From NCBI GenBank assembly GCA_963776275.1, contig CAVZMI010000029.1:23123-87122 (forward strand): a stretch of DNA of 64,000 nucleotides. Direction: 5' to 3'. This DNA comes from Ignavibacteriota bacterium. Lineage in GTDB: Bacteria; Bacteroidota; Ignavibacteria; UBA10030; CAVZMI01. The number at the start of each line of letters is the position of its first letter. Within the stretch, counting starts at the first letter, position 1. The notes beneath the pieces are model-generated. The model did not search any database and was not told the origin of the DNA. It saw only the letters and a list, made by a program, of their open reading frames with translations. Made by a program: the position numbers and the translations under genes. Below, piece by piece: positions 8,513 through 59,548 of the stretch.

Positions 8513-10624
8513 TTATGATGTCGGAGCTTTTATCAATCCGTGGGCTCCACCTAATGCATGGAGATCGTTGATTAAGGCCATAAGCGCTTGATTGAATTCT
8601 GTCTGTGTAGATTCATCGGTCAATACGTCTCTATTGAGTGTCCCGGTCGGTAATCCCCAGCCAGCCTTTGATGCGCCAATCAGTTTGTCCCAGTTTGCAG
8701 TAAATATACCTCCCGTATTGGCAAGCATTATATAGCTGGCATATATTTCTCCCCATGAAGCACCACTTCCAGCTACACACAATCCAGTACCACTCGCCTT
8801 TCCAATCCGAGGATATGAGCTCGAACGATCAAAAAACAATTGATCTGGTACAAACATTGAATTTCCATTATTAGTATCAATGCCAAAAATCTTGTTGCCG
8901 TCCATATCCGTCACATCAAACCATCTCTTAACCATTAAAGAAACCGCAGATCCGACAGCTTTCAAATATACTACTGGATCCGCCATATCTGAACCCAAAA
9001 GAGCGATGAAATTCTTAAATATTGCTTGGTCGGACCTAATGTTTTTTGATAGAATCTCAAACACGTTATTCCATACTCCCATTTTTTGCATGAGAATTGA
9101 AGCTCTCCATGTATCTGCCGCTGCGGCAAGATGCGTCCCGTCTCCATTCCAGCCGAGTCGAACAAGTTCCTCATAACTCTTACATGAAGGGAAACTATCA
9201 TGGTAAAACAAATCATGAGTATCCGCATGCGCTTTAAGAATAGCATTGGATTCTTTTGTCACGGCATTATTATCTTCTGACCAAACCGGAGAAGTACCTA
9301 TCAAACACCAATCCATATTGGGACAGGCAGTCAAAAATTTCTGATAAGTACTTTCGAGGGCATCTGCCCATCCCTCGATAGGATCCTTCCACTCCATATA
9401 CATGAGATCAAAATTCATTTCAGAAAAATAAGTCTGGAAGAAATCAGGATCTATTGCGTCCCATTGAGTAAGATCAGCACCCGAGCCAGCCGAAATGCTT
9501 AATTCTACTCCGGAATTTTTTGTAGATCTGATGTAACCACGTAACGATCTCACTATACCGGTGAGACCTACAATTCTTACTTGATGCTGACCTGTCTCTT
9601 CGTATGGTATTGTAATAGTTTTGAGTTCTATGTCACCGTCTGCATCCACATTCGTGTAATCCTCGATATCTTCCCATGTTCCTTGACCTTGACCCGAAAC
9701 AGTTTTGGTTTGCAGTTTAAACGTACCGGCATCGGGTTCTTGTATGTAAAATATTACAATTTCATCAGCATATTCCCCCCCACCATCGATGACAGTTCCT
9801 CCTTCGGGAATATAATAATATCCTCCAGACGAAGGATCGTCCGTCTTCCATTCAGCTCCATTTTCTGCACAATTTTGTGGAGTGGCTCCTTCCAACTTAC
9901 CATAGGCCTTTTGAACTAAATTATTTATGTAATTCGGAAGACGATTTCCTATTGAATCTCCCCAGACTGCTACTCTCAGCTGAGATGGAACCGGCGGATC
10001 TTCCGGATCTCCTGCTGCTTCCTTTTCACGTGCTATTTCCATCGCATGCAATTTTTGCCAGACGTTTCTGAATTGCGGGATCGGTGGAGTAGATACATTG
10101 GCCACTTCATCTTCCAGTGTTCCTATGTCTGTAGTGTGCTCGCCGACTGTTGTCTGTAAGCTTCCTATATCTGTAGTATGTCCACCGACTGTACTCTGCA
10201 AAGTTCCTATATCCTCACCCTGTGCGGCAACCGTCTCTTCTATGCCTTCTAACTCTACGCCTCCCAGATTTTCAATCTGGCTGGTATGTGTGTCGACTGT
10301 CTCCTGCAAAGTTTTAAGCGCTGCTATGGATGGCGATGAAATAAGTAAGTATCTTTTGCCCTTCGTGCGGTGTGGGCTGGCGGTTGTAATATCACTTCCT
10401 CGTTGCCCGAAAGTTAAAACTTTCCCGACTTTCACCGATATCACCCCATCCTCAATCTCAGGATCAAGAAAGGGAGAATGGATATACTCTTCATTGATGA
10501 TCCAGTACGGAAAAGGCGCCGCCGGCAGCCCTGATGCATCGAGCACCTCGCATATAGTAGCACTCTGAGTAATCCCGCTCTTCAAATATGCGGCCGCTAA
10601 TTCCTTTTTATTTTTAAGTGCCAT
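8513..10624 (-). CDS. tail fibre/tailspike with an SGNH (GDSL-type) esterase domain
   Basis: Probable start at ATG 10624 (MALKNKKEL), with GAGGTG 4 nt upstream. The track start at 10699 adds 25 implausible residues. Coiled repeats GTLQSTVGGHTTDIGSLQTTVGEHTTDIGTLEDEV. SGNH block I VAVWGDSIGN and block V GDGTHL. Confidence 0.6.
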   Translation of the reverse strand: MALKNKKELAAAYLKSGITQSATICEVLDASGLPAAPFPYWIINEEYIHSPFLDPEIEDGVISVKVGKVLTFGQRGSDITTASPHRTKGKRYLLISSPSIAALKTLQETVDTHTSQIENLGGVELEGIEETVAAQGEDIGTLQSTVGGHTTDIGSLQTTVGEHTTDIGTLEDEVANVSTPPIPQFRNVWQKLHAMEIAREKEAAGDPEDPPVPSQLRVAVWGDSIGNRLPNYINNLVQKAYGKLEGATPQNCAENGAEWKTDDPSSGGYYYIPEGGTVIDGGGEYADEIVIFYIQEPDAGTFKLQTKTVSGQGQGTWEDIEDYTNVDADGDIELKTITIPYEETGQHQVRIVGLTGIVRSLRGYIRSTKNSGVELSISAGSGADLTQWDAIDPDFFQTYFSEMNFDLMYMEWKDPIEGWADALESTYQKFLTACPNMDWCLIGTSPVWSEDNNAVTKESNAILKAHADTHDLFYHDSFPSCKSYEELVRLGWNGDGTHLAAAADTWRASILMQKMGVWNNVFEILSKNIRSDQAIFKNFIALLGSDMADPVVYLKAVGSAVSLMVKRWFDVTDMDGNKIFGIDTNNGNSMFVPDQLFFDRSSSYPRIGKASGTGLCVAGSGASWGEIYASYIMLANTGGIFTANWDKLIGASKAGWGLPTGTLNRDVLTDESTQTEFNQALMALINDLHALGGAHGLIKAPTS

Positions 10625-10740
10625 CTCACACCTCGTCTCAACAATAGTTAAAAAAATAAACTGAAAAATTAGAAACAGGCGACTTCTCCTCCCCCACAAC
10701 CAACTCTCTAAAAGAAACCGCCTGTTCCAGCACTGATGAT

Positions 10741-11229
10741 TTATTTCCGGCTTCTTCGTGCCATTTTTCCGTGTTCCTTAAGCTCCGATTTTTTCACATA
10801 GTTTTCAGCAAGATTCAATTTTAACTCTCCGATTTCTTTCATAATCTCTTCCTTGCTATCGATCATCACCGTCTTCACTTCGTCGAAGCGGTTCACATAA
10901 TTTTTTTCTATATTGTCTACTATCCCCGAGACAATATTAACTCTATCAGTGAGTTCTTTAAATCTATCCCTCTCGAATTGGCATCCTGCCGATATTGTTG
11001 CGACCAGTTTTTCACATTCCCTCATCCTATCCCAGAGTCCTTGAGCATCGCCCAAAGTCTTCTTTAAATTTTCCAATTCAGTATTGATTGAAGCAACTGA
11101 GGTTACCGCAGTTTCGAGATCGGAAATTTTCTTGAGTGTTATTTTCGCAGCAAGAACAAATACTGCCGACATTAGCAGCATAAATATTCCAAGAATGACA
11201 CTAAATGCATTCATCTCCATCGGATCCAC
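10741..11229 (-). CDS. membrane-anchored coiled-coil protein
   Basis: 162 aa. N-terminal transmembrane segment (FSVILGIFMLLMSAVFVLAA) followed by heptad-like sequence. Confidence 0.45.
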   Translation of the reverse strand: MDPMEMNAFSVILGIFMLLMSAVFVLAAKITLKKISDLETAVTSVASINTELENLKKTLGDAQGLWDRMRECEKLVATISAGCQFERDRFKELTDRVNIVSGIVDNIEKNYVNRFDEVKTVMIDSKEEIMKEIGELKLNLAENYVKKSELKEHGKMARRSRK

Positions 11230-15841: not shown

Positions 15842-18800
15842 TCATTCCTGGTCTTCTGTATTCTCTTCTTCTGGAACTTCTTCTTCCGTTGATGGCCATT
15901 GCCACCCGAATACCTCGTTCGCAAAATTAACTTCTTTTGGCATGGGTGGTTTATAATGACGATTTCTCCCTGCCCATATCTTTCTATATTCTGTCCGCTC
16001 TTTCTGAGCAATGTCCAAAATATCCTTCATCCATCGCCTAATATCTAATGGCCAATAAATATCATCCTTCGAGTATGTCGGTGGAAGATTTTCTGTTTGC
16101 CCTGTTCTACGATTATACTCCTCTTTTGGTTCAAAATCACTCCTTGCAGCAATTTTTACTCCTCCGGTTTTATGATCAATGACCGGTATGTCATCAACAT
16201 CATTTTCTTCAAGTATTTTGAATATATTTTCTTTCTTATTCGTGATCGTATCAGGTTGAAGTAATCTAACCTGCCTCCAATTTTTTATGCTGTCGTAAAG
16301 CTTCCTCTCAACTTCATCACTATGCACCGCTGGAGTTGATATCCCACTCTTGAAGAATGATTTGAATTCATTAAAACCAACATTGCTTATCTCTCCGGGT
16401 GATGGATTGGCATGATCGTATTCTCTTTGCTCGCCCTCAATAATTTTTTCTATTTTCACACGCCGATTGACCGGATCAACAGAAACGAATCGATATAATC
16501 CATGCTTCTCCCAATTACCTCCGTTTCGAGTAAAATATCTACCTACTGGTACTACAATTCGCCGATCGGCGTCGACATATGCCGGTTCATCCGATTCCAG
16601 AAGGCCTTTATATTCAAATTGCTCATTGTTCTGTAGTAGTTGTCTTGTATAGGTTATACGTTCCTGTAGCTGCTTGCCGAGTTCATCAGACTTTTCTTCC
16701 GGCTTCATCTTTTTATACTGGATCAAGAGATTCTGATATTGATTGAATGCAGACAATCCTCTCTTTTGCATTTCCTCTCGGTTCTTCTCAATCTGTGTTT
16801 TATTCTCTGCATCTACTTTTAGGCGCTCGGCTTCGGGATCATCGGAAAGCATCACCTGTAGTTCCTGCGGTGAAAAGCTTCTTCCGGAATTCTCATTCTT
16901 CGCTTCATCTGCTGTACCATTCCACAGATCCCATTGCCAGCCTTTCTTTCGATTGATCGCGTCAAAGAAAAATCCGTCAAATGTCCCATGTGTCATATAA
17001 TAATTTATATCGACCATTTCCCTCTTGTTCCCTTGCCGAACTCCTCGACCGTTGCGCTGTTCGATCGCTGCCGGCGTCCATGGTAAGGTAAGATGATTAA
17101 CGGCGCTTGTTTCTACCTGGAAATTCATACCTTCGGCCATTGTACTGTTGCCAATAACAACTTTGTATTTTCCACTGTTGTATTCTTCCGACATATGCTG
17201 TCTGTTCGATGAACTCCCGGCGGTATCAGCGTTGATTATGAGGATATCTTTCTCTGGAATACCGGCCTTAATTAATTCATTTTTGAGTTCTTTTTGTATC
17301 GCCTTAAATTCCGCAAATATCAATTGCTTTTCACCCGTCTTATAAATTCTTAAAGTATCTTCCACGCTTTCTTTCATCTTCGGACTTACACCCTCTTCTT
17401 CTACCTCTTTGCTGGTCAATTCTGGACGGTGTTCGCTTCCTTCCTCCATCAACAGTTTAATAGAAATTGCTGCCTTCTGCATATCTGAGAGAATCGAAAA
17501 AATATGATCACCACTTTCCTTCCGTTCTTCTTCGGTCATTGCCAACAACTCTCGAGCACGTTCTCTAAGATCATTATATACTCTTTTTTGTAATGTTGTC
17601 ATGTTGCTTGTGTTAAAATGCGGATCCGGTTGAGGGACCTTCAATCCTACATCCTGAGCTCGGCGCATGTCGGTATATCGCATGAAGATTGTTCGTAATT
17701 CTGGTAAGGCTTTGAAACCGGTCAAAGCTGGCCGCGGTTTTATCTCTCCACTGATATCTGCAATATCCAGAGTCTCTACATTACCGAAAGTATCGAAGAA
17801 GTCTTGCATGTTAAAAATATTTCGGCGATCGTATTCTTCAGGAGCAATATATTGAAGCATGTTATATGCTTCCAATGGATTATTCACTGTCGGTGTTGCC
17901 GTCAAGAAAAATACATTCTTTCCATTATTCTTTTCTCGAATGAACTGCGACGCAACATACATTCGCATCGATCGCTGTACGTCCGGCTGTGTCATTGCCC
18001 ATTTAATCGGCCGCCCGACAAGGCCAAAAAGATTCCGATAACTATGAGCTTCATCGGCGAACAACGCATCCACACCCAACTGGTCAAAATATATGGTTTC
18101 TACTTTCTCGTGGCCGGCTTTTACTCGACCCATGATTGCCCGTTCTATATTAGCTTTGGCGACTTCCACATCCCGGGCTGTGGCTTCCGCATTTGAACGT
18201 ATGATGTGTCGATGCACTACATCGTCCAGAGTCCGTTGCAATATCTCCGGACTGAATGACATCATGTCAAATTTATCCCGAGTAATCAGAACAATATCAT
18301 AATCATTCTGAGCGACCTGTTGTAATTTTCGTTGAACTTCCTCAAATGTATCTTCATTCCATTGGATTTTGCCTTTTACATCAAGTTGTAATGTTTCATT
18401 TTTATCCTTTTTCTCATGCATCCCTATGATCATGATCTTCCGTTTTTTATTTCCGGAAAAGACATTGATCTCACTCACCCAATTCGCCAGGACGCTTTTC
18501 GGTACTACGATCATCGGTTTCTTCGCTATTCCCCTTTCCTTCAAAAGATAGGCCGTGGCAATCGCGGCAAAAGTCTTGCCCAATCCGGTCCCATAAGCCA
18601 GGATGCCTCGTCCCACATCAAGCATTCTCCGGATAGCTGAATAATGGTATCGATTCAATGAAAATCCATCGTCCATTTTATCGATCGGGATGGGAGTATC
18701 GTCATACTCCTCTTTCACATAGTTGTTAAACTTTCGATTATAGGTATTCTCGAACTCTTGCCTTTTCGGATGAACTGCTAACCAGCTCCGGAAACGTTCT

Positions 18801-19309
18801 TTGAATTCTTCGATCGCTTCCTCACGGTCTTTATTCTGGACTCCGTGCTCCAATCCTAAATTATTGAGATGCCGGATTAAATCACCGTAGAAATTGTATT
18901 CACTTGGAACAGTGCCTTTCGAATGAGTTAGATCTACTTCGTAAATGTTCGTCGTTTCATCATACAATAAGGGTTTATTCCCCCGACTGATCATAAACTC
19001 ATTCAGTACTTCAAGGGGGATCCATCGCGAACGGAGATTGAGCGGCATCTCCTCAATCGTCCGGAATTTTACCTTTGATTGCATTGTTGTTATTTGATTT
19101 TCGAGTTTCTGAATTTTGAGTTCATTCTCTCGATCGTCACCTCCCATCAATCGACCTATTTCATTTTTCCATCGGTCGATTTTATCATACACCGTTCCGG
19201 AAAGCAGCCTTTCCATTGGCATGTCGTAATATAGCGGGATCAACAGCTCTTTTCGATCTTTCAGATCTATTATGTGCTCGCATGAGTGCGGTATCATAAT
19301 CTGCGTCAA
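15842..19309 (-). CDS. large SNF2-family helicase (polyvalent-protein-type)
   Basis: 1155 aa. Motif I GTGLGKTFAAIATAY, motif II FADEAHSYRN, then LTATPTVNNPLE, and a helicase-C region ending QRNGRGVRQGN. The true start is uncertain: in-frame ATGs at 19222, 19216 and 19147 would shrink the 125-nt overlap with the upstream ORF. Confidence 0.85.
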   Translation of the reverse strand: MTQIMIPHSCEHIIDLKDRKELLIPLYYDMPMERLLSGTVYDKIDRWKNEIGRLMGGDDRENELKIQKLENQITTMQSKVKFRTIEEMPLNLRSRWIPLEVLNEFMISRGNKPLLYDETTNIYEVDLTHSKGTVPSEYNFYGDLIRHLNNLGLEHGVQNKDREEAIEEFKERFRSWLAVHPKRQEFENTYNRKFNNYVKEEYDDTPIPIDKMDDGFSLNRYHYSAIRRMLDVGRGILAYGTGLGKTFAAIATAYLLKERGIAKKPMIVVPKSVLANWVSEINVFSGNKKRKIMIIGMHEKKDKNETLQLDVKGKIQWNEDTFEEVQRKLQQVAQNDYDIVLITRDKFDMMSFSPEILQRTLDDVVHRHIIRSNAEATARDVEVAKANIERAIMGRVKAGHEKVETIYFDQLGVDALFADEAHSYRNLFGLVGRPIKWAMTQPDVQRSMRMYVASQFIREKNNGKNVFFLTATPTVNNPLEAYNMLQYIAPEEYDRRNIFNMQDFFDTFGNVETLDIADISGEIKPRPALTGFKALPELRTIFMRYTDMRRAQDVGLKVPQPDPHFNTSNMTTLQKRVYNDLRERARELLAMTEEERKESGDHIFSILSDMQKAAISIKLLMEEGSEHRPELTSKEVEEEGVSPKMKESVEDTLRIYKTGEKQLIFAEFKAIQKELKNELIKAGIPEKDILIINADTAGSSSNRQHMSEEYNSGKYKVVIGNSTMAEGMNFQVETSAVNHLTLPWTPAAIEQRNGRGVRQGNKREMVDINYYMTHGTFDGFFFDAINRKKGWQWDLWNGTADEAKNENSGRSFSPQELQVMLSDDPEAERLKVDAENKTQIEKNREEMQKRGLSAFNQYQNLLIQYKKMKPEEKSDELGKQLQERITYTRQLLQNNEQFEYKGLLESDEPAYVDADRRIVVPVGRYFTRNGGNWEKHGLYRFVSVDPVNRRVKIEKIIEGEQREYDHANPSPGEISNVGFNEFKSFFKSGISTPAVHSDEVERKLYDSIKNWRQVRLLQPDTITNKKENIFKILEENDVDDIPVIDHKTGGVKIAARSDFEPKEEYNRRTGQTENLPPTYSKDDIYWPLDIRRWMKDILDIAQKERTEYRKIWAGRNRHYKPPMPKEVNFANEVFGWQWPSTEEEVPEEENTEDQE

Positions 19310-20234
19310 CCAGTACCAATCTTACTTTATATCCATTCTGTTTCAATTCATGATATAATTTTTCAGCCTTCCCGGGATTCGATAGCGCTCCATCGATCAC
19401 CACATTCTGTTTATTTTTTATTGCTTCTGAAATGAGCTGCTTACTCATATGCGAACTTTCTTCATGGGCAATACTGGCCGCTTCATAATCATCGGCTGCA
19501 CGGAGAATTTGGTATTCTGGTATAAATTCCTTTGCCTCATCGGCATCGACCCATACATGAGATCGATTCGATTTCAAATCACCGTACAATGTTCTAAGGA
19601 TCGTACTCTTTCCGGTCCCGCCTCCACCTGCCAGAACGATCGCCTCACGCTTTCCTTCAGGCAAATCTTTCGGCACCTCTGCTGTTTGTATATTGAGAAA
19701 TGCTGAATGTAGTTCGCTTCGTTCTGGTTCCCATTGTCCATCATGGAAATATCGCCGCTCAGTGCTTATATCCTTAACCTGCGATAGAAACTCCTCATCG
19801 AGATCCTCCGGCGTAATAGTCTCAAAATCACGATAGATATATTGCTTTAATCGATCAACATATTTCCTATTCTCTTCTTCTTCCGGTACCGGAGCTTCGC
19901 TGGCCGACGTTCTGGATATCGCGAAATGTTTTCCAAGTCTCGATTTAACAGCCAACATATGATCGGCTATGTCTGTAACCTTTACCCTCAAACCACGATA
20001 TTTGACTTCATCACCAACCTTTATATCCTTCTGCCACTGTTCAAGCTTGTGGGATTGAAGCTCTTGTTTCTGAGACTGATGTTGGTCGGTCGGTTTTTGA
20101 TTTCCTTTCTTCTGTTTCTCATAATCGTCATCGTTCAACCAACGTCCCTGATCTGTGGAGAACCTGCGTCGATCAGTGGGGCCAAACATCCGGACCTCGC
20201 CTTCTGTCGGCTTTTCCACTGACTTCCTAAACAT
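19185..20234 (-). CDS. Zeta-toxin-like P-loop kinase with an N-terminal junction/SH3-like module
   Basis: 349 aa. P-loop LAGGGGTGKSTI followed by VDADEAKEFIPEY and a GYKVRLVLVDAD layout typical of Zeta-toxin/AAA_33 kinases. 8-nt overlap with the upstream 1261-aa ORF. Confidence 0.6.
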   Translation of the reverse strand: MFRKSVEKPTEGEVRMFGPTDRRRFSTDQGRWLNDDDYEKQKKGNQKPTDQHQSQKQELQSHKLEQWQKDIKVGDEVKYRGLRVKVTDIADHMLAVKSRLGKHFAISRTSASEAPVPEEEENRKYVDRLKQYIYRDFETITPEDLDEEFLSQVKDISTERRYFHDGQWEPERSELHSAFLNIQTAEVPKDLPEGKREAIVLAGGGGTGKSTILRTLYGDLKSNRSHVWVDADEAKEFIPEYQILRAADDYEAASIAHEESSHMSKQLISEAIKNKQNVVIDGALSNPGKAEKLYHELKQNGYKVRLVLVDADYDTALMRAHNRSERSKRAVDPAILRHANGKAAFRNGV

Positions 20235-23200
20235 AACGATCGCCTTTTTCCCGATCGCTCTTGAAAAACCGTATCAGTTGGCGTATGCTTTTTTTTAAGC
20301 CGCCCTTTTCATTCGCTAATTCAAAACCATACTGCCTTGCAATATTTTCCATTTTACGATATACATCAAACGCCCCGAATTGTTCTTTTGCCGATTCCTG
20401 CTCATCGGCTGTCAGCTGCTCCTCTCCGGACCGATAGGGCTTATTCTCAAGCAGAGTTCGTTCAGCGATTGCCACCACATCCTGATACTGTTCTGCCTTC
20501 TTCTGTTCTTCAGATTTGATTGATCCGAAAATATCATCCTGATTCTGATCAAGTGTTTTAAGCGCATCAGAGAATCGGCGTATTTTTAGTGCGAATTGGT
20601 TTATCGATTTATTCCGGTTTTCTTCATCAAACCGTGGATTCATTGCTTGATGATATGCTATCATGCCGACAACAGTTAACGGATCCCGGAAAAGGTTCTC
20701 TTCTTTCTTCTCTGTGGAAAGTAGATCTTCCTGCCTCATTCGATGGATGAGTGTGTCAGGATTCATCGCTTGAGGATCGTCATTTAAGAATTCCACGTTT
20801 CCGGCCCGGATATTCATCAATGATTTCGTCCCAGAACCGAGGTTGTCATAGGATTTTACCACACGGCCGAGGAAGGATTGAATATCCGCATATCCGGGGA
20901 CCCGGCCTTCCGCCACTGCTCGCTGATTGTCTGCCAGGACCGAAGCCAACTTTCGTACCAATCTATGTGTTTTGTCATCCCGACCAGCAATATCCTCAAT
21001 GAAGTCTTTCTTTAGTTGCGCCAGCATCGCGATATTGACAAGTCTTGCTTGTACCGATGGATGGCTCTCAACTGCTTCACGGGCTAATCCGGAATCCTTC
21101 AAAATCTCTTGATAGAGTTGTGGATTGTTTCTGACAAACGTTCCCACGTTATTTTCATCGATCGACCGGTTACCTATACCTTCAAGATTAATACGAAAAT
21201 CATATGGCGTGCGTTGTGCATTTTGGAATGCCCGGGCTTCCTCGACCTCGGTCTGCGGTAGAGCTGCACTCTTCTGACCAAATGCCGCAAGTCGACGTGC
21301 ATCTTCATACGTATGCATCGGCGTCAATATCCGAACCAGCATATCGTTTTCTGTTAGTTTTTCTGTCGGAGTACCAAGTTTCTTCGCCTTATCGAGTATC
21401 ATCCCGAAATACTTTTCACGCTGCACGCCTTGTGTACCTTTAATGCCGGCACTGCGGCCATTTCCTTGGATGATATAGACTTTCCCATCTCTGGAAAATG
21501 CCACTGGTGCACCGCGGGTAGCATCCGCATTGTCCGTTACCACGTCGTCGTTAATATCGGAAGCAATCTTTTGCATTTGAGTTACCGCGTGCACGTCACT
21601 CCTTTTTCTTGCCTGCAGTTCAACGGGATGCTCTGCGTTCTCTTGACCTTCGACATTATGAGATTCAACTACCGAATCCATAGGTACAAAAGCATATACC
21701 ACATGATAACTATTCCCACTGCTATCTCTAATCTTGAATGGCTCTTCGACCACAGCTTTTGCGTTCTCGGGAATTTCCGAGGTATCTCCCCATTCAAATT
21801 TACCTTTGGCCCCGCTTGTACGCGCTTCACCTATTTTTTCTCTGAGCTTTTCGCGTAAATAATCATTCCGGCGCTGACGGATGAAGCTCTCTGCTGTATC
21901 CATGTAATCGGATATCTGTCTGGCTGCTGGCTTTTCCTTCAGAACGCCGCTTTGCGATAGAGTATTGAAAGCATCGATCTCTCGCCCTCGCTGATCATCC
22001 GCTACTTTCATTCGCTCAGCCAAGGATTGTATGGTTGCTTTCCATTCCGGTCGACCATATGCTTCTGCGAGCTGTTCGTCAATCCCCTCTCCACTATTAT
22101 CTATGAAAGAATCGAAAACATCTTTATACATGCCAGCATCAATCGGCTTACGTCCTGTTTTTTCTTTTTCGATCCTGGCTTTCGCCGTATCGACGTCCAT
22201 ATTCCTGATCTGCTCTTCCCTTAGTTTTCCTGTAAGTCCGACGACCAACCTCTTCATTTTCTTTGAACCATCATCGAGCTTACTATCATCGACGTTACGG
22301 CGTGTATTCTTTTTTAGGATTATATTCGTTCTCCGGTTTCCATCTATTACACCGATTTCATGACCATGCTTATAAACCGTAATGCCAGTAGCAATTTTAC
22401 CGAGACGTATATCTGTATATCGGGCACCCACTGCCGGCTCCAATCTCTTCCATACTTCATCATTGATTATCCGGATGGTCCCGGGCTTCAAGAGATCTGC
22501 TTGAGTAATACCTTCTTCCATTCTGATGGCACCAAGTTCTTTCTCGCCCTTTTGTACCGTAGCATTTCCATCTTCATCCAGGATTAAGTTTCCCTGATAT
22601 TTATCGAGATCGTACTGATTGATTTTAACTTCATCATTTCCCTTCCTCAGGACAATATCATCGCCATCGATGTCAACCAACTCCTGTGTTTCGCCTTTGT
22701 ATATCAAATGAATAGGCCGGTCATTAGCCGAAACTGTATACGTCTTTTTCTCCGGAAGCCATGTTCGGTTTAAAGTATAATGAATCTTAAACCAACCTTC
22801 TTGTTCCCATTCAACATCCTTTTGAAAATTGAAATCGTCAAGCTGATTCCAGTCTTTGGAGAGATGCTCTTTGAATTCCTTATATTCCGGTGTTTCTATC
22901 TGTTCATTGTGTATCCGGGTCACTTCTTCCTGATATTTTTCCCCGACTGATTTTGGATGGGGTTCGAATTGCAATACTCTCTCCTGCTGCCGCTTTTTCT
23001 TTTCATCAAGAGCATTCTGTTGATAAATCTCCGTCATTTTTCCATGTTGTATATCTCCAGTTTCTTGTGAAATAGTTTTTTCCGATTGCTTCTTGGCTGC
23101 GACCTTACTTTCTGCGTCATGATTGTACTCGGTTGTCTTCAATGTACCTGTCGATCCATCTTCTTTTTTGAAAGCAACAATATCATCTGCATAATTTACA

Positions 23201-24012
23201 ACCTGCACCTTTTCACCCTTCCATGGTATTTCCTGTCCGACTCGAAATTCTCGAGCTGCAGGCTTTGGAGTTCCTTCGTTTTGAACTTTATCCGTCTTCT
23301 TTTGCTGACGGCGTTCAAGCTCTTTCTTTTCCTCGTCCGCGTTCATCCACCTCATCGCACCATCCGGAGTCCGCATGAGCTTACGAATATCATTCGGCCC
23401 AAATTGCTTCGTCGTGCCCTCGGTGGGTTGCGATTCCGGATTGAGGTTTAACTTAAATTTTCCAGCATTGAAACTGATACCGACCTTATTCGGTCTTTGG
23501 GTGATAGATCTCGGGGTATTGGTTTGAATACGCTTCCGAAGTTCTATAAAGAAATTACCTACTTCCTCGATGGCCCGGGTTTCCCGCTGATAATCAATTG
23601 CTGGCCGCAATAGACTCTTCCGGCATACCTTTCTCCCAGCACCGTTTTCAATTAAGGCCATTTGATCACCGCATTCGATCACCGTGCCCTCTGTTGTCTT
23701 CGCTCCCTTTTGTAACCAGCTTCCCGATATTTCCAGAATCTTTCCCTGTATATCACTCATGATAATACAATCATTCTCACTCTTGAAAAAGTAAACTTTT
23801 CCATGTTCGCGAGATGGAGCCGACCCCAGAAAATTATCTATAGTCTTATCCACAAGTAAATAAGGTTTCCCATTGATAACACCGACTTCATAACTCTTAA
23901 GTATCAATGGAATTGAATTCTCTATCGGCTCGATCAAGAGCTCAATCCCGCGTGATAGGGTATAACCTTGCACCGTCTCGGCAAAATATTTCTTTGTGTC
24001 ACTCTCCATCAT
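20227..24012 (-). CDS. 1261-aa polyvalent-type protein with a ParB-like (ddrB-ParB-type) nuclease domain
   Basis: The stretch HPVELQARKRSDVHAVTQMQKIASDI...ATRGAPVAFSRDGKVYIIQGNGRSAGIK fits the ELQPRDR...GNGR pattern of ParB/sulfiredoxin-fold domains found in polyvalent proteins. The rest is large and not recognised. Confidence 0.6.
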   Translation of the reverse strand: MMESDTKKYFAETVQGYTLSRGIELLIEPIENSIPLILKSYEVGVINGKPYLLVDKTIDNFLGSAPSREHGKVYFFKSENDCIIMSDIQGKILEISGSWLQKGAKTTEGTVIECGDQMALIENGAGRKVCRKSLLRPAIDYQRETRAIEEVGNFFIELRKRIQTNTPRSITQRPNKVGISFNAGKFKLNLNPESQPTEGTTKQFGPNDIRKLMRTPDGAMRWMNADEEKKELERRQQKKTDKVQNEGTPKPAAREFRVGQEIPWKGEKVQVVNYADDIVAFKKEDGSTGTLKTTEYNHDAESKVAAKKQSEKTISQETGDIQHGKMTEIYQQNALDEKKKRQQERVLQFEPHPKSVGEKYQEEVTRIHNEQIETPEYKEFKEHLSKDWNQLDDFNFQKDVEWEQEGWFKIHYTLNRTWLPEKKTYTVSANDRPIHLIYKGETQELVDIDGDDIVLRKGNDEVKINQYDLDKYQGNLILDEDGNATVQKGEKELGAIRMEEGITQADLLKPGTIRIINDEVWKRLEPAVGARYTDIRLGKIATGITVYKHGHEIGVIDGNRRTNIILKKNTRRNVDDSKLDDGSKKMKRLVVGLTGKLREEQIRNMDVDTAKARIEKEKTGRKPIDAGMYKDVFDSFIDNSGEGIDEQLAEAYGRPEWKATIQSLAERMKVADDQRGREIDAFNTLSQSGVLKEKPAARQISDYMDTAESFIRQRRNDYLREKLREKIGEARTSGAKGKFEWGDTSEIPENAKAVVEEPFKIRDSSGNSYHVVYAFVPMDSVVESHNVEGQENAEHPVELQARKRSDVHAVTQMQKIASDINDDVVTDNADATRGAPVAFSRDGKVYIIQGNGRSAGIKGTQGVQREKYFGMILDKAKKLGTPTEKLTENDMLVRILTPMHTYEDARRLAAFGQKSAALPQTEVEEARAFQNAQRTPYDFRINLEGIGNRSIDENNVGTFVRNNPQLYQEILKDSGLAREAVESHPSVQARLVNIAMLAQLKKDFIEDIAGRDDKTHRLVRKLASVLADNQRAVAEGRVPGYADIQSFLGRVVKSYDNLGSGTKSLMNIRAGNVEFLNDDPQAMNPDTLIHRMRQEDLLSTEKKEENLFRDPLTVVGMIAYHQAMNPRFDEENRNKSINQFALKIRRFSDALKTLDQNQDDIFGSIKSEEQKKAEQYQDVVAIAERTLLENKPYRSGEEQLTADEQESAKEQFGAFDVYRKMENIARQYGFELANEKGGLKKSIRQLIRFFKSDREKGDRYV

Positions 24013-52514: not shown

Positions 52515-53222
52515 TTATGGTTGTGAATTGTTCCTTATAATTTCATCAAACTCTACCATCATTTGTGGAACCAGCATCGGTAGAATTAATTCCCAGTGAG
52601 GATCTTCATTTTGGACAATTCCCTTTGCAACTGCTTTCTGCCAGAGGTCAAGTTTTGCCTGATCTGGAAGTAAGTAAAATTGCGCCTGGAGGCGCTTACA
52701 TTTTTTATCGATTCGTTCTGCATGTTTGCGGATTTGTTCTCTTATTTTACCACTCCACCAGATTTGTACATCAATTAGACCCTGCCTTGCGAATTCTTCC
52801 TCATTCATCGATCCAATTTTAAGTCGAATATATTCATCTCTTCTTTTTTGGATCCGATGTTCAAAAATCATTTCAATCTCTGCCGAGCTATAAAGGGTTT
52901 CAGAGTTAAGAAACATATCAAGAGTAATTGCCCGAAAATCCTTCGTTTTGACTACGTTCTTTGCCCATTCTAAAATTTTTTCGATGGGTTCCGGTTGATT
53001 ATTCAGAGACACTGCCAATGCTCGTCGTTCATCGTCGGAAAGATGAATTTGCTTCATGTTTTCGACCCATTGAACAATTTTAACAATCCTGGCATATCGT
53101 GCAGCATCACTCTCTGCGACGGACTGGAGTTTGTTCAAAAGTGCGTCGAGCGTCTTCGTTTGTTGTAGATCCACCTGCTCTCGCAGATCGACCTTCTTGA
53201 TTACTTCTTGAATGCTTTCCAT
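52515..53222 (-). CDS. hypothetical replication-module protein
   Basis: 235-aa ORF with no P-loop. Overlaps the upstream ORF by 116 nt. Confidence 0.45.
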   Translation of the reverse strand: MESIQEVIKKVDLREQVDLQQTKTLDALLNKLQSVAESDAARYARIVKIVQWVENMKQIHLSDDERRALAVSLNNQPEPIEKILEWAKNVVKTKDFRAITLDMFLNSETLYSSAEIEMIFEHRIQKRRDEYIRLKIGSMNEEEFARQGLIDVQIWWSGKIREQIRKHAERIDKKCKRLQAQFYLLPDQAKLDLWQKAVAKGIVQNEDPHWELILPMLVPQMMVEFDEIIRNNSQP

Positions 53223-53991
53223 TTTTCACCGTTAAAAATAGTCTTGTGAATTGTTTCCGTAATGCTGACACCGAGAGAATATTTATTTTCCAAAATGGAT
53301 CATGTTGACAAAATTCGATTATTATTCTTATCTCATTTGGATTGCGTTTGTCAAGGCGTATTAGCCTATCCATTTCCATTGCCCATTCTTCAAAATTTGG
53401 TCTTTTCACTTTGGGATCGTTTTTAAGCATTCTCGCGTATAGGAGTCTTGATAATTTCATCGGAGGTAATTCTTTTGGGAATCGTTCCGACGCTCTTTTT
53501 CTTTTGTCCTTGTCCTTGTCCTTGTCCTTGTCCTTGTCCTTAACCCCTTCTATGCCCTCAATTTGATCTCTATTTGAGATCAAATTGGAGTCAAGTTGAC
53601 CTCCATTTGAGGTCAAGTTGAGGTCAAGTTGAGTTCTTAAATAGGGTGTTGGATCAATCCCATTTTGAATAAGTAAATTGATTGCTGAATTATGCATCCG
53701 ATTCTTATCGTTCAAAATTCCACCGTATTGGAACTCTATGAATCCCGTTAAAAACCACCTCCCATTATCCAGAACCTTTATTCGTTCTTTGTCCACATTA
53801 ACTGTTTCAATAAACTCTTGAAGATTGACTTTCGCCCCAATCAATCTGTTAAATGTCGTACTATTCGGCCGCCATATTCCCGCATGATCACATGTATCTT
53901 TTATGAATCCCCATAGGAGTTTGTAATTCTTTGACAATCCAATAAACCAGTCTTCTTTCCATATTTCTGTATCTGTGTATCTTTTTGCCAT
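53107..53991 (-). CDS. replisome organizer / replication initiator (DnaD/DnaB_2-like C-terminal domain)
   Basis: 294 aa. N-terminal WKEDWFIGLSKNYKLLWGFIKDTCDHAGIW. C-terminal WAMEMDRLIRLDKRNPNEIRIIIEFCQHDPFWKINILSVSALRKQFTRL fits the DnaD-like pattern. Iterons lie in the linker. Confidence 0.6.
   Translation of the reverse strand: MAKRYTDTEIWKEDWFIGLSKNYKLLWGFIKDTCDHAGIWRPNSTTFNRLIGAKVNLQEFIETVNVDKERIKVLDNGRWFLTGFIEFQYGGILNDKNRMHNSAINLLIQNGIDPTPYLRTQLDLNLTSNGGQLDSNLISNRDQIEGIEGVKDKDKDKDKDKDKRKRASERFPKELPPMKLSRLLYARMLKNDPKVKRPNFEEWAMEMDRLIRLDKRNPNEIRIIIEFCQHDPFWKINILSVSALRKQFTRLFLTVKNGKHSRSNQEGRSARAGGSTTNEDARRTFEQTPVRRRE
53506..53541 (-). repeat. hexanucleotide tandem repeat (GTCCTT)x6 encoding (KD)n
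   Basis: Six perfect units, translated as KDKDKDKDKDKDK in the replisome organizer linker. Confidence 0.9.
53565..53632. other. putative replication origin: palindromes plus three phased GTCAAGTTGA iterons
   Basis: GATCTC-TATTT-GAGATC at 53565-53581. GTCAAGTTGA at 53590, 53612 and 53623, giving spacings of 22 and 11 bp. Lies inside the initiator gene, as in the lambda O/ori arrangement. Confidence 0.5.
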
Positions 53992-55734: not shown

Positions 55735-56145
55735 TCAAAATGGAAGGTCTGATTCGTTTTGAACTGTACCAGTTGCAGCTGCTGATGATTGGTTTTCCGC
55801 AGCTTCGCTCGACGATGTTTGCCTTGGAGCTCCATCGAGCATGATTAAACTCTCAGCCAAGATTTCAGTGATATAACGTTTCACACCATTTTTATCGTCG
55901 TAGCTTCGTGTTTGAATCCGTCCTTCGATATAAACTCTTTTCCCCTTCTTCAGCCACTCGCCGCATATTTCTGCAAGTTTTCTCCAGGCAACAATATTGT
56001 GCCACTCGGTGCGTTCCTGCAGATTTCCATCCTGATCCTTCCAGCTCTCGCTTGTCGCGATGGCAACTCCGCTTGTGGTATATCGGAGCTCAGGGTCCTT
56101 CCCGAGATTTCCGATGAGCATCGCTTTATTCAGACTTTTCGCCAT
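55735..56145 (-). CDS. ssb: single-stranded DNA-binding protein
   Basis: 136 aa. [48 protein letters not shown] is an OB fold. The acidic C-terminal tip ends in DLPF. Confidence 0.9.
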
Positions 56146-57106
56146 CTGAAGTCTCCGATGATGTGACGGTTGTGGTTTCAGTAAATATTCTCTTACTCAC
56201 GTATCTCAGCGCGTCGCCGTTATGCTTCACCGCCTCCAGACATACCTCAACCGTCTGTTCCTTCACGTATCTCAGCGCGTAGCCGTCCCGACGCACCGCC
56301 TCCAGACATACCTCAACCGTCTGTTCCTTCACGTATCTCAGCGCGTCGCCGTTATGCTTCACCGCCTCCAGACATACCTCAACCGTCTGTTCCTTCACGT
56401 ACTGAAGCGCGTAGCCGTCCTGACGCACCGCCTCCAGACATACCTCAACCGTCTGTTCCTTCACGTACTGAAGCGCGTCGCCGTTATGCTTCACCGCCTC
56501 CAGACATACCTCAACCGTCTGTTCCTTCACGTACTGAAGCGCGTCGCCGTCCCGACGCACCGCCTCCAGACATACCTCAACCGTCTGTTCCTTCACGTAT
56601 CTCAGCGCGTAGCCGTCCTGACGCACCGCCTCCAGACATACCTCAACCGTCTGTTCCTTCACGTACTGAAGCGCGTCGCCGTCCTGACGCACCGCCTCCA
56701 GACATACCTCAACCGTCTGTTCCTTCACGTATCTCAGCGCGTAGCCGTTATGCTTCACCGCCTCCAGACATACCTCAACCGTCTGTTCCTTCACGTACTG
56801 AAGCGCGTCGCCGTTATGCTTCACCGCCTCCAGACATACCTCAACCGTCTGTTCCTTCACGTACTGAAGCGCGTCGCCGTTATGCTTCACCGCCTCCAGA
56901 CATACCTCAACCGTCTGTTCCTTCACGTACTGAAGCGCGTCGCCGTCCTGACGCACCGCCTCCAGACATACCTCAACCGTCTGTTCCTTCACGTACTGAA
57001 GCGCGTCGCCGTCCTGACGCACCGCCTCCAGAGCTTTTTCGCCTATTAGTTCGATGATTTCTGATTCTCGGCGATTGATCGATACCAAAAATAACTTGAG
57101 ATCCAT
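56126..57106 (-). CDS. tandem-repeat protein (DUF4116-like 22-aa repeats x13)
   Basis: 326 aa. The unit LEAV[RQD/KHN/RRD]G[D/Y]AL[Q/R][10 protein letters not shown] repeats 13 times. Short unique N- and C-termini. Confidence 0.7.
56198..57031 (-). repeat. 66-bp tandem repeat array (about 12.6 units), coding
   Basis: Exact 66-nt periodicity (for example CGCCTCCAGA at 56231 and 56297). The units are identical except at a few codons. Confidence 0.95.
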
Positions 57107-57136
57107 AATCCTCTCCTTTTTTCTCTTCTGAGTAAT

Positions 57137-59548
57137 TCAGTTTATGATTTGTATGCCCGTTTTCTTATCAAGATGGATCCTTTGCGGTATCTGCTGCCAC
57201 AGTTCTGGCGTCTGCGATATGATCATCCCGTAATACCGCTTTCCGAGTGTGAATGATTCTCGCATCATCTTTAGAAATTTGTCCTTGTTATCAGGATCCA
57301 AAGGACCGTCTGCTTCATCGGAGTAAGATGTTAAATATTCCTTTCCGGATTTCTGAGAAAGATAGATCGATATCCCTTCGCTGATTGCTCTGTCAACCCA
57401 TACAGCCTCGCCTCCGGAGAGCATCTCCAGTTTCTTCTCTGTTCCGTTTCCAAAAACCTTAATTTCGAATGTCTCTTTTTGTTTGCCTTCTGTTGTTATT
57501 CGTGTCGTCTCAAATTGTATTTGAAATCTGGACCCGAAAGTGTTCGCCAGTAATTCGTTTGTTATTGAGGTCACTGCGACACCGGCGTAATCTAATTCAA
57601 TGGCCGGGATACCATCCCTGGAGAATGCTTTCTGTAGAAGGAGCCAGTACTCAATTTCTTTTCCCAGCTTCTGGAGTTCGCCCGATTTCAGCTTTTTCAG
57701 TTCGGCTTCCAGTTTATCCAATCGCTCCAATTCATTCCTCACTGATATCAGCTCACCCTGCAACTCTGCATCCCGAGCAGCGATGATCATAAGTTCGTTT
57801 TCGTTACTCGCTATCTTCTTTATCAACTCGGTCCGCTGACCTCGTAATTCGTCCAGTTTTCTTGCAACCTCTGACAACCTCTGCCATTCATTGTTCTTCT
57901 CTTCCAATTGCCCTTTATATTCCTTAAGGCTCTGCTCTTTGCGGATCTCGAGACTTCGGATCTGCTCATCGATTGAGCTTAAGACTTCATTTTTAGCTTT
58001 GATGATGGTCTCTGCTTCGCGCAATTCGACCTGTATTTCTTCCCACCGTTTTGCTTCGATCTCCTTGATTTGTACCTTTACCGTCGCATGATGCTTTGCA
58101 TCATAACCGATCGCCGCTTTCTGCTTCTCAAATTCAACTGCCTGTCCGTTGGGTGGAGGATTTTGTATCAACATAGCGAGCTGCTGCTGTGCTTCAACTT
58201 TTTTCTCGTTCCCCTTTTCGGCGAAAGATTCATAGATTAGTTCGATCTCCTTAATTTCCGATCGAACTGCATCGATTTCCTTTCCTGACTCTATAGCACC
58301 CTGTAAGAATTGACATGATTTTTGCATCGTTTCATGTCCATTACATGGTACACTACCAATCAATGCAGCTCTTTTCTCAAGTTCCGATAATCGCTGCTTT
58401 GTATGCCCGATCTTTGTCTCACCTTCACGTTTATGTTGATCGATCTGTAATTCGGTCCTCGATAAGATATTCCGAGCATCCTGGACAGCCATATTATGAG
58501 CACTCTGTTGCCGGCTGAATTCCAATTGATAGTTGTTGAACTCAGAATCTATGATATGAAACCGACTTTCCTTTTCAGATAATGTTTTCTCCTCGATTCT
58601 TAAGGCTTGGAGTTGAGAAACTTGAGTATCTATTTCCGTCTTGTGGCTGACTATTGTTGATTTTCGTTCGATCTCTTTGACGATGAGTATTCTTTTCTGC
58701 TGCAAATCCGCTGCTTCTTTGTTAGATTCGATTTCCAATCCGGAAATCCGCGATAGCAGTACCTTTATATCTTCATTGATTTTTCCGATTCCTTGTATCA
58801 GGCCTTCATTCTCGCCGATCTGCCGATCGTAATCCTCTCTCGTTTTCTGCAACCGAAACCGTTCGATGTTCTTGGCTTCTTTTTGTATCCTCATCTCATC
58901 CAGGTCTTTGAGTAGAATCTGATATTGTTCTGTCAATTGCGGCTTCCGCAATAGTTCAAGAGATTGACTGTCGATCGCGTTTTTCTTCTCCTCATATCGG
59001 ATATCGAGTTCCTTCGCCCTTTGCTTTGTGTATTCCTCATAATATTGATATCGATCAAGAGCGAGAAGCTCAAAAAACAAGGCCTTCCTTTCAGTCACAT
59101 CCAATCTTGCAAAACTTTCATGCCGTTGTGAATTAAAGATCGATCGGAAAAATAACTCTGGAGTACCTAACAATTTCTCGATCACCACATCATAGGTCAT
59201 GTTCTTTCCATCATTCTGCGGTTCACCGTTTTTCCATATATAGGCTTCCGATTTGCCGGTTTCGGCATCGATCGATATGAGTGTTCGAAATTCATCCGTA
59301 CCGATCGCAAAACAGAGTTCACGATATGAATCCTTTAACCGGAAATGATCCTGAAGCTTTCCTTTTCGAGATGCTAACATACGATAGGGGTGAAGATTTT
59401 CAAGTATTGTTGTCTTACCCGCTCCATTGCTGCCTACTAAAGCGACTATCCCGGGGCTGAAATTCGTGAATTCAATTTTTACCTCGTCCAGTCCTATCCC
59501 CTCATATATTCCTATCGCTCCCCGTAATTTTAGTGATATAAGTCTCAC
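57137..59548 (-). CDS. Rad50/SbcC-like SMC ATPase
   Basis: 803 aa. Walker A GSNGAGKTTILE, a long coiled-coil middle region, signature LSGGE and Walker B-like YSDEADGPLD. Confidence 0.8.
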   Translation of the reverse strand: MRLISLKLRGAIGIYEGIGLDEVKIEFTNFSPGIVALVGSNGAGKTTILENLHPYRMLASRKGKLQDHFRLKDSYRELCFAIGTDEFRTLISIDAETGKSEAYIWKNGEPQNDGKNMTYDVVIEKLLGTPELFFRSIFNSQRHESFARLDVTERKALFFELLALDRYQYYEEYTKQRAKELDIRYEEKKNAIDSQSLELLRKPQLTEQYQILLKDLDEMRIQKEAKNIERFRLQKTREDYDRQIGENEGLIQGIGKINEDIKVLLSRISGLEIESNKEAADLQQKRILIVKEIERKSTIVSHKTEIDTQVSQLQALRIEEKTLSEKESRFHIIDSEFNNYQLEFSRQQSAHNMAVQDARNILSRTELQIDQHKREGETKIGHTKQRLSELEKRAALIGSVPCNGHETMQKSCQFLQGAIESGKEIDAVRSEIKEIELIYESFAEKGNEKKVEAQQQLAMLIQNPPPNGQAVEFEKQKAAIGYDAKHHATVKVQIKEIEAKRWEEIQVELREAETIIKAKNEVLSSIDEQIRSLEIRKEQSLKEYKGQLEEKNNEWQRLSEVARKLDELRGQRTELIKKIASNENELMIIAARDAELQGELISVRNELERLDKLEAELKKLKSGELQKLGKEIEYWLLLQKAFSRDGIPAIELDYAGVAVTSITNELLANTFGSRFQIQFETTRITTEGKQKETFEIKVFGNGTEKKLEMLSGGEAVWVDRAISEGISIYLSQKSGKEYLTSYSDEADGPLDPDNKDKFLKMMRESFTLGKRYYGMIISQTPELWQQIPQRIHLDKKTGIQIIN

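Follow-up and report, generated by a model that had tools for sequence, protein, structure and literature searches.

A 64,000-nucleotide stretch of contig CAVZMI010000029.1 (Ignavibacteriota bacterium, assembly GCA_963776275.1, positions 23,123 to 87,122 of the forward strand), which we call the window and number from its first letter, is the DNA of a tailed phage, with genes for a portal protein, a major head protein, a terminase, SbcCD and a DnaD/O-like initiator. Here we describe a repeat gene on its minus strand (56126 to 57106), a complete open reading frame (ORF) of 326 amino acids (aa) that encodes a stand-alone α-solenoid protein of the DUF4116 family. The gene lies between that of an SbcC/Rad50-like ATPase (57137 to 59548, minus strand; phrog_77, E = 5.5e-40), which served as the handle for finding orthologous loci, and ssb (55735 to 56145, minus strand; PF00436, E = 3.6e-34). 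A nucleotide search with the 8-kb neighbourhood against 50,697 phage records returned no match. On the 5' side, an element resembling a Shine-Dalgarno sequence, AAGGAGAG, was read from the sequence at 57111 to 57118 (minus strand), 4 nt 5' of the ATG at 57106 and with its GGAG core 6 nt 5' of it. On the 3' side, the last 20 nt of the gene (56126 to 56145) overlap the start of ssb; the same 20-nt overlap is found in two related phage contigs, L004 and L005, and thus in all three assemblies that span the gene. Given the overlapping start, ssb is possibly coupled translationally to the repeat gene.

The protein consists of an N-terminal cap, 13 units and a C-terminal cap with a tail. The N-terminal cap (57032 to 57106, minus strand; 25 aa) is near-identical in the orthologue P0186 of contig L004, and its motif, M.LKEFL..VNG.ES.IIEY.GEEA, is kept across a family of small stand-alone homologues described below. 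It is followed by 12 full 66-bp units of 22 aa each (56240 to 57031, minus strand) and by a thirteenth unit (56198 to 56239, minus strand) that is truncated to its first 14 residues and runs into a tail beginning SKRIFTET. This last unit carries the terminal-type CTGAGA (Leu-Arg) allele, like the last unit in the orthologues. The C-terminal cap, for which the family motif is YV.KSIF, and the acidic Ser/Thr-rich tail, 23 aa in all, occupy 56126 to 56197 (minus strand) together with the stop codon. Tandem Repeats Finder reported a period of 66, 12.5 copies and a score of 1306 at 56208 to 57032. Splitting the ORF at CTGGAGGCGGTG gave 13 unit starts with a spacing of exactly 66 nt (57031, 56965 and so on to 56239), and the 39-nt inter-unit scaffold occurs 12 times with 0 mismatches (0 expected by chance), with no copy outside the array anywhere in the 64-kb window. 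A second ORF of 275 aa runs antisense across the array (56222 to 57049, plus strand); we do not count it as a gene, since a frame without stops in the repeated unit produces it automatically and the neighbouring genes are all on the minus strand.

An earlier sequence-only reading of the window had described a 326-aa ORF of 66-bp tandem repeats between an SbcC-like gene and ssb, and the ORF, the Tandem Repeats Finder result and the unit starts bear this out. The order of variants that it gave for the five variable residues of each unit (positions 5 to 7, 9 and 12) is matched exactly: RQD-D-Q, RQD-D-Q, KHN-D-Q, KHN-D-Q, KHN-Y-R, RQD-D-Q, RQD-Y-R, RRD-D-Q, KHN-D-Q, RQD-Y-Q, KHN-D-R, RRD-Y-R and KHN-D-R. 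Its count of 17 of 22 residues invariant in all 13 units holds for the 12 full units and for the first 14 residues of unit 13, but not further, because unit 13 is truncated.

At the DNA level, 42 of the 66 nt are invariant across the 12 full units and no synonymous differences were counted between units. Each variable nucleotide site in these units is biallelic, and the alleles come in three linked blocks. Block 1 is CGTCAGGAC or AAGCATAAC, with CGG besides in two units; block 2 is GAC or TAC (D/Y); and block 3 is CTTCAG or CTGAGA, in which a linked synonymous Leu change is included. The D/N and D/Y alternatives are each 1 nt apart, and Q/R could be so as well (CAG/CGG), but in this array CTTCAG (Q) and CTGAGA (R) are several bases apart. 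The multi-nucleotide blocks 1 and 3 occur in all four combinations, which indicates that the units are recombinants of a few older types and not products of point hypermutation. The clustering of the three mutational blocks within 24 nt of the unit has P = 0.38, or P = 0.08 when five codons are counted. Clustering in this single array is by itself unremarkable, and it becomes meaningful because the same positions recur in other lineages.

The orthologous gene in the sbcC–ssb interval comprises 2, at least 3, 13 (window) or 22 units in related phages. In contig L004, which is ∼80% identical to the window in nucleotide sequence and has the same gene order (SbcC, the repeat gene, ssb and the next six genes), P0186 is a protein of 86 aa whose N and C termini are near-identical to those of the window protein and which has two units only. 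Two JGI contigs, L008 and L010, have flanks 99.85–99.96% identical to L004; both end inside the array and jointly need at least three units, including a new D-to-Y unit. Copy numbers of two and at least three at 99.9% flank identity imply that copy number changes on a strain-level time scale. In L005 (an 86-kb contig with 83% aa identity in SbcC), the repeat gene has 22 units and encodes 525 aa, and the mismatch between its units falls to 0.040 at an offset of 10 units compared with ∼0.08 at other offsets, which points to a higher-order duplication of a 10-unit block. Several alleles are common to these phages: G/T at nt 24 (D/Y); CTTCAG in internal units, with CTGAGR in terminal and some internal units; and CGNCAR (RQ) as opposed to AAGCNT (K plus H, R or S). 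The scaffold of each phage has its own fixed synonymous differences. Alleles shared across phages with differing scaffolds indicate that the variable residues are old, reshuffled unit types; the positions had been called hypervariable in the sequence-only reading, a description that does not suit two alleles per nucleotide site shared with related phages. By this comparison the array behaves as a coding minisatellite, that is, near-identical 66-bp units within an ORF whose copy number is polymorphic among relatives, and we infer that copy number changes by unequal homologous recombination or by slippage between the 66-bp units.

A rival explanation is that the length or order of the window array is an artefact of assembly. 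Short-read assemblies do break or end inside such arrays, as in L008, L010 and Ga0079306, which starts and ends in an array, and the exact repeat protein is not on record elsewhere. However, no exact repeat in the window array exceeds 137 nt, and reads or k-mers of at least ∼140 nt therefore give a unique path; neither the reading frame nor the 66-nt spacing shows any irregularity; and an SbcC 100% identical to that of the window is on record on a 93-kb contig. The independent related contig L005, moreover, has 22 units with the same kind of mosaic, and its longest internal repeat of 192 nt together with the contig name suggests that it is a long-read assembly. We consider an artefact improbable. 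The JGI contig Ga0079306_1000289 (52.9 kb; L009 at 1 to 170 and L011 at 10503 to 10839) belongs to an unrelated GC-rich phage, and its start and end inside a DUF4116 array mean that the assembler either cut it or closed it into a circle within the repeat.

Further observations concern the composition and conservation of the array DNA. In the window and in L004, L005, L001 and L007, GC content at third codon positions (GC3) rises sharply inside the gene, from 0.35–0.40 at its termini (56126 to 56197 and 57032 to 57106 in the window) to 0.73–0.83 in the array (56198 to 57031 in the window), and the GC content of the genome is 43%. Arrays with diverged units (Slicky01 and L006) have no such excess; the jump is compatible with GC-biased gene conversion or with a foreign origin of the units. 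In register, the array DNA of the window, L004 and L005 is 89–96% identical, compared with 79–82% for the flanks. Convergent GC-ending codons, exchange of arrays between phages and selection at the DNA level are each a possible cause of this higher conservation. L005 also carries, at 9960 to 10895 (minus strand), just 3' of the 123-aa gene that follows ssb, an IS1595-family transposase with three small ORFs, an insertion that is absent from the window.

The repeat protein is clearly a member of the DUF4116 family: Pfam DUF4116 (PF13475) matched it with 346.2 bits against a cutoff of 24.9 (E = 6.3e-106; 12 matched stretches), in agreement with the DUF4116-like backbone noted in the sequence-only reading. 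In PHROGs it falls in families without assigned function, and PADLOC and NCBIfam gave only spurious sub-threshold matches. An AlphaFold2 model made with an 81-sequence alignment (pLDDT 90.4, pTM 0.83) is a strictly periodic α-solenoid, in which each unit consists of a 10-residue helix A (positions 19–22 and 1–6), a break or kink at position 7, a 6-residue helix B (positions 8–13) and a 5-residue loop. Foldseek matched the model in BFVD to that of a Marseillevirus F-box/DUF4116 protein (E = 3e-22, TM score 0.84, rmsd 2.0 Å), so that the solenoid predicted earlier is upheld. In the Protein Data Bank (PDB) it found weak matches only, to importin-α ARM repeats and one designed repeat (best E = 1.1e-3 to 4e-3, TM score 0.16–0.28), and searches of the PDB by sequence, and by fold with the 326-aa and 86-aa models, revealed no informative neighbour. 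The DUF4116 family has been modelled as an α-solenoid before (PMC8078820), and in the literature searched it is mentioned only in that way. The window thus holds a real phage gene for a stand-alone DUF4116 α-solenoid with an N-terminal cap, 13 units and a C-terminal cap with an acidic tail.

DUF4116 is present in phages, including jumbo phages, in giant viruses, in protists and in bacteria, and a first search with the repeat protein gave >1,200 matches among 8,000 scored candidates. Scans of IMG/VR with the SbcC protein and with a 33-nt scaffold gave no matches, IMG/VR searched with the repeat protein gave one distant match (L002) whose context is not comparable, and a GTDB genome scan with an array 22-mer gave no match and hence no hint of a host or prophage. 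Exact-protein look-ups of the repeat protein, of SSB, of P0244 and of P0241, the SbcC identical to that of the window, returned no record. A profile search with the protein collapsed to its N-terminal cap, two units and C-terminal cap gave 387 matches, mostly of 75–160 aa. These small stand-alone proteins typically have 2–5 units, a conserved N-terminal cap and a conserved C-terminal cap (YV.KSIF), with no other domain, and include a protein of phage Slicky01. Judged by this architecture, the window protein belongs to a stand-alone phage-type DUF4116 subfamily, as we define it here; the literature searched holds no description of such a capped phage subfamily, of a 2-to-22-unit polymorphism or of a three-position alphabet. 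Many longer homologues (P0012, P0018, P0042, P0050, P0083 and P0089) share an N-terminal motif, NHNGYQF.TGLN.D..PFNP.G.C..GGIYFC, in a module that Pfam does not recognise in P0012; the repeat may have in it a partner domain yet to be characterised.

Among 918 units of 120 homologues, the conserved positions are A3, V4, L11, V14, C22, Q17 and T18, which probably form the core, and the most variable are 9, 19 and 12, followed by 2, 16, 6, 15, 7 and 5. A helical wheel puts positions 9 and 12 on the side opposite L11 and V14, with 5 and 6 closing helix A by the turn. Each unit would accordingly present its five variable residues as a single exposed patch. The surface-facing placement assumed in the sequence-only reading is consistent with this: the residues are those that close helix A, the one at the kink and an i/i+3 pair in helix B, all of high entropy in the family, with their exposure presumed.

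For a family diversity set of 120 small stand-alone proteins (393 units), we calculated the ratio of within-protein to between-protein amino acid diversity at each position of the unit. This ratio was 0.96–0.98 at positions 7, 9 and 12, 0.79 at position 6, 0.60 at position 5, ∼0.55 at positions 1, 2, 15 and 16 and 0.10–0.36 at positions 18–21; positions 19 and 20, although as variable between proteins as 7 and 12, are homogenised within proteins. In 120 long multi-domain homologues the same trend was seen, albeit weaker. The sequence-only reading had named an even spread of variation over the repeat in homologues as a result that would refute it, and here the outcome is divided: variation is spread over ∼12 positions when proteins are compared with each other but falls on positions 7, 9 and 12, and less on 5 and 6, within proteins. 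The pattern recurs in P0041/L001 (seven units with KQD/KRN, D/Y and K/R), in P0098 (SQY-D-K and SKN-Y-R units), in L007, where 7 nt in codons 6, 7 and 9 separate odd units from even ones and the other 57 nt contribute a single, synonymous change, and in L011 (ER[DN]G[DY]AL[QR]); these are independent lineages. The alphabet is small, with D/N at position 7 in 85% of units, Y/D at position 9 in 61% and Q/R/K at position 12 in 85%, and the eight D/N × D/Y × Q/R triples are all common and near linkage equilibrium (mutual information about that of shuffles). Mutual information between variable positions of neighbouring units gave weak signals (z ∼4 for 9–12), which we did not use as contact evidence because they are dominated by same-position concerted evolution and a 2–5 helix-face pair. 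The ratios, which ignore kinship, would fit selection that keeps a contact patch heterogeneous and recombination that homogenises the scaffold, as in PRDM9 or TALE arrays.

A neutral account of the same data is that of a runaway minisatellite, in which an ancestral form of 2–4 units is functional, the array of this lineage has expanded because a solenoid tolerates extra units, and the variable sites (N-cap D/N, exposed Q/R/K) are simply the least constrained, with neither a code nor selection for heterogeneity. Consistent with this, the family typically has 75–160 aa with 2–5 units, the 2-unit orthologue keeps the same caps and locus, a small number of conservative alleles mostly differ by one mutation, the triples are near linkage equilibrium and the single-array clustering test is weak. 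A neutral process is, however, at odds with the persistence of identical multi-nucleotide alleles in phages at 20% divergence despite homogenisation of the intervening scaffold, with the concentration of odd/even differences of L007 in codons 6, 7 and 9, and with positions 19 and 20, which vary between proteins like 7 and 12 and are nevertheless homogenised within them. We regard the neutral account as possible but doubtful.

Alternatively, the array could act at the level of DNA, as iterons of an origin, or could be a product of targeted mutagenesis by a diversity-generating retroelement, and a direct-repeat array within a replication/recombination module would suit the former. Yet the caps and motifs are strongly conserved as protein across hundreds of proteins, the 2-unit orthologue would be without iterons, and the array neither folds as RNA beyond expectation (z = 0.26) nor has a match in Rfam. 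A better origin candidate lies at 53504 to 53634, within the ORF of the DnaD/O-like initiator (53107 to 53991, minus strand): a (TTGTCC)n run encoding KDKDKDKDKDKDK precedes direct repeats of 11 bp that resemble iterons and number five to seven (TCAAGTTGAGG / TCAAATTGGAG), and the region looks like a λ-type replication origin embedded in an initiator gene. As for a retroelement, no template copy exists elsewhere in the window, the allele differences involve all bases and are not adenine-specific, and the window lacks the marks of a diversity-generating retroelement, with no search for a reverse transcriptase made in the remaining ∼29 kb of the genome. Either form of this explanation seems to us hardly tenable.

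The reading that we favour, and to which as a whole we give an even chance, is that the gene encodes an early accessory protein-binding solenoid with a heterogeneous contact patch, whose array grows and shrinks by unequal recombination. Whole units would be gained and lost without a frameshift, either by slippage or by unequal homologous recombination between the 66-bp units, and crossovers within units would reshuffle a small set of old types (RQ or Kx, D or Y, internal LQ or terminal LR). Positions 7, 9 and 12, with 5 and 6, at the turn between helices A and B and on the outer face of helix B, would form the ligand-contact patch suggested by the family statistics; selection would hold this patch different from unit to unit and recombination would homogenise the rest of the unit. 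The weakest step is the ligand, which may be a protein or extended peptide of the host or the phage, bound early in infection, so that the solenoid would serve as an adaptor, an inhibitor or a multivalent decoy, and an increase in array length would add contact patches or change their order. A protein ligand is suggested by homologous arrays fused to F-box, RING, IBR and AAA domains and, in a giant virus, to a kinase, by the net charge of −24 and by the weak structural neighbours among peptide-binding ARM and designed repeats. In fusion architectures of this kind, the repeat module usually recognises substrates.

The sequence-only reading had suggested a programmable nucleic-acid- or polymer-binding solenoid by analogy with TALE, PUF or PPR proteins. 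In a nucleic-acid reader of this type, each unit would contact one nucleotide of single-stranded DNA, RNA or double-stranded DNA through the triad at positions 7, 9 and 12, and the order of units would spell the target. A constant scaffold with a small alphabet (D/N; Y/D/N/H/F; Q/R/K) freely combined in >100 proteins agrees with such a reader, and residues of these types serve for base recognition in PUF and TALE proteins. The gene also sits within the recombination/replication modules of several phages, and one homologue is fused to an ArdC N-terminal domain. On the other hand, the protein has a net charge of −24 and a pI of 4.76 (the family median pI is 5.9), Pfam and Foldseek gave no TALE, PUF or PPR match, the unit has 22 aa with two helices and not 33–36 aa, and the 2-unit orthologue would read two elements only. 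The F-box, RING and IBR fusions point to recognition of protein, and other family members lie beside RNA ligase, ThyX or lysis genes. A nucleic-acid reader is therefore not favoured, and we rate it as rather unlikely. We judge in much the same way a wider form of the idea, a modular code in which the 7/9/12 triad of each unit reads one element of a polymer, whether a residue of an extended peptide or a nucleotide of single-stranded DNA or RNA, and phages re-programme the target by recombining units.

The genomic context bears on a further possibility. In nine independent phages, the repeat gene always lies in an operon of small early genes. In one phage it is found between DnaG and PolA; in another it comes first, facing a CI-like repressor and followed by ERF and SSB; in L011 it immediately precedes a RecT-like annealing protein and an exonuclease; and in a further phage it lies upstream of a Rad52-like protein. 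Elsewhere it is beside RNA ligase, ThyX or lysis genes, or among only small ORFs without known function. Tight linkage to SSB or recombinases, which we had considered, is weakened by the latter group. Recombination genes are thus frequent but not universal neighbours, and the association may just reflect early expression of both. An acidic decoy that imitates DNA, like Gam or Ocr, and so sequesters a host nuclease or restriction enzyme and protects recombination intermediates, is a sub-variant of the protein-binding solenoid. The charge of −24 is spread over the array (−1 to −3 in 10 of the 12 full units, with units 5 and 12 neutral), the gene in L011 lies directly upstream of RecT and exonuclease, a position comparable to that of gam upstream of the recombination genes in λ, and in the lineage of the window it is wedged between sbcC and ssb. 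Set against this, we rejected acidity as a mark of DNA mimicry for the whole family, given the near-neutral homologues, and an orthologue with two units could imitate only a short length of DNA. A DNA mimic is in our opinion decidedly improbable.

Several points weigh against the protein-binding solenoid with a selected contact patch. The restricted alphabet may be structural rather than a code, D/N being the classic helix N-cap pair and Q/R/K generic exposed helix residues. That the gene functions with two units as well as with 22 speaks against a length-specific binding register. The scaffold of L005 has three dimorphic sites, two of them synonymous, and the confinement of variation to the variable sites is thus not absolute. 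Acidity varies across the family (P0041 is approximately neutral, Slicky01 has −2, and the median pI of the matches is 5.9). Exposure of the variable residues is predicted from helix periodicity and family entropy, not from coordinates, and searches of the literature and the PDB found neither a ligand nor a solved structure for DUF4116. Lastly, the length of the window array is that of the assembly, not of reads.

Elsewhere in the window, two adjoining giant ORFs on the minus strand (15842 to 19309, 1155 aa, and 20227 to 24012, 1261 aa) lie downstream of the portal gene and upstream of the head genes. One of the pair is a very large methyltransferase/helicase with DarB-like antirestriction similarity (phrog_11801, E = 3e-161; phrog_10089, E = 6e-78), and the two may be injected anti-restriction proteins.

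The locus and its orthologues amount to a natural experiment for DUF4116, in which the caps, the slot in the genome and the scaffold are the same and the number of units is 2, at least 3, 13 or 22, with differences at only three to five positions that are predicted to be on the surface. If these positions are a contact patch, the phage versions are a ready-made allelic series for finding the ligand, and the series could test the short two-helix unit as a modular binder; if the code were real, it would provide a new programmable scaffold beside TALE, PUF and PPR. Function aside, the locus is a clear coding minisatellite of a prokaryotic virus, with concerted evolution, shared alleles and a sharp GC3 jump, and is relevant to how recombination shapes phage genes and to metagenome assembly, in which contigs break or circularise inside DUF4116 arrays.

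When the array is compared with known systems, a classical contingency locus shares with it only the hypervariability in length. The contingency locus entertained in the sequence-only reading was right in that repeat number changes (2, at least 3, 13 and 22), but on/off phase variation is rejected because 66 nt is a multiple of 3 and all copy-number variants stay in frame. TALE, PUF and PPR proteins likewise combine a constant scaffold with a small alphabet at fixed positions and have recombination-prone arrays of variable length; they differ in a unit of 33–36 aa as opposed to 22 aa and in the lack of a sequence or structure match, and the window protein is strongly acidic. Membership of the TALE group, whose repeats of 33–35 aa have the repeat-variable diresidue at 12/13, is rejected on the unit length and on the lack of a TALE match in Pfam or in Foldseek against the PDB, and membership of the PUF/PPR group, for which repeats of ∼35–36 aa and a basic RNA surface are expected, on the lack of a Pfam or structural match, the pI of 4.76 and the charge of −24.

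Stacked helix pairs are shared with ARM/HEAT repeats, DHR, αRep and importin-α, the source of the weak Foldseek matches. The TM score to them is, however, ∼0.2, E is never below 1e-3, and the window unit, built of a 10-residue and a 6-residue helix, is shorter. ARM/HEAT membership (∼40 aa, two to three helices) is therefore rejected, Foldseek being weak and Pfam HEAT_GCN1 below threshold with 0 matched stretches. αRep proteins have idealised near-consensus units with capping modules (PMC3754942), as does the window protein.

The evolution of the array resembles that of the PRDM9 zinc-finger array, with concerted evolution of DNA units, change of copy number and differences in few codons. In PRDM9 the variable codons are those of ligand-contact residues, and the ligand is DNA. 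The units there are C2H2 zinc fingers and not two-helix solenoid units, the ligand is known and the alleles are highly diverse, whereas here they are few and shared. PRDM9 units are near-identical, vary in copy number between close relatives and differ in few codons (PMC3890296). The within/between ratios and the shared alleles would fit selection for diverse contact codons as in PRDM9, although the alphabet may also have a structural explanation. Close known systems include the DUF4116 proteins themselves, with the same 22-aa period, the motif lEAVkqnG.AL.yVkeQT.eiC, the α-solenoid fold and a score >300 bits over the Pfam threshold. From these the window protein differs in being small and stand-alone, with its own N- and C-terminal caps and no F-box, RING, IBR or kinase partner, and in having units near-identical in DNA and an array that is extremely polymorphic in length.

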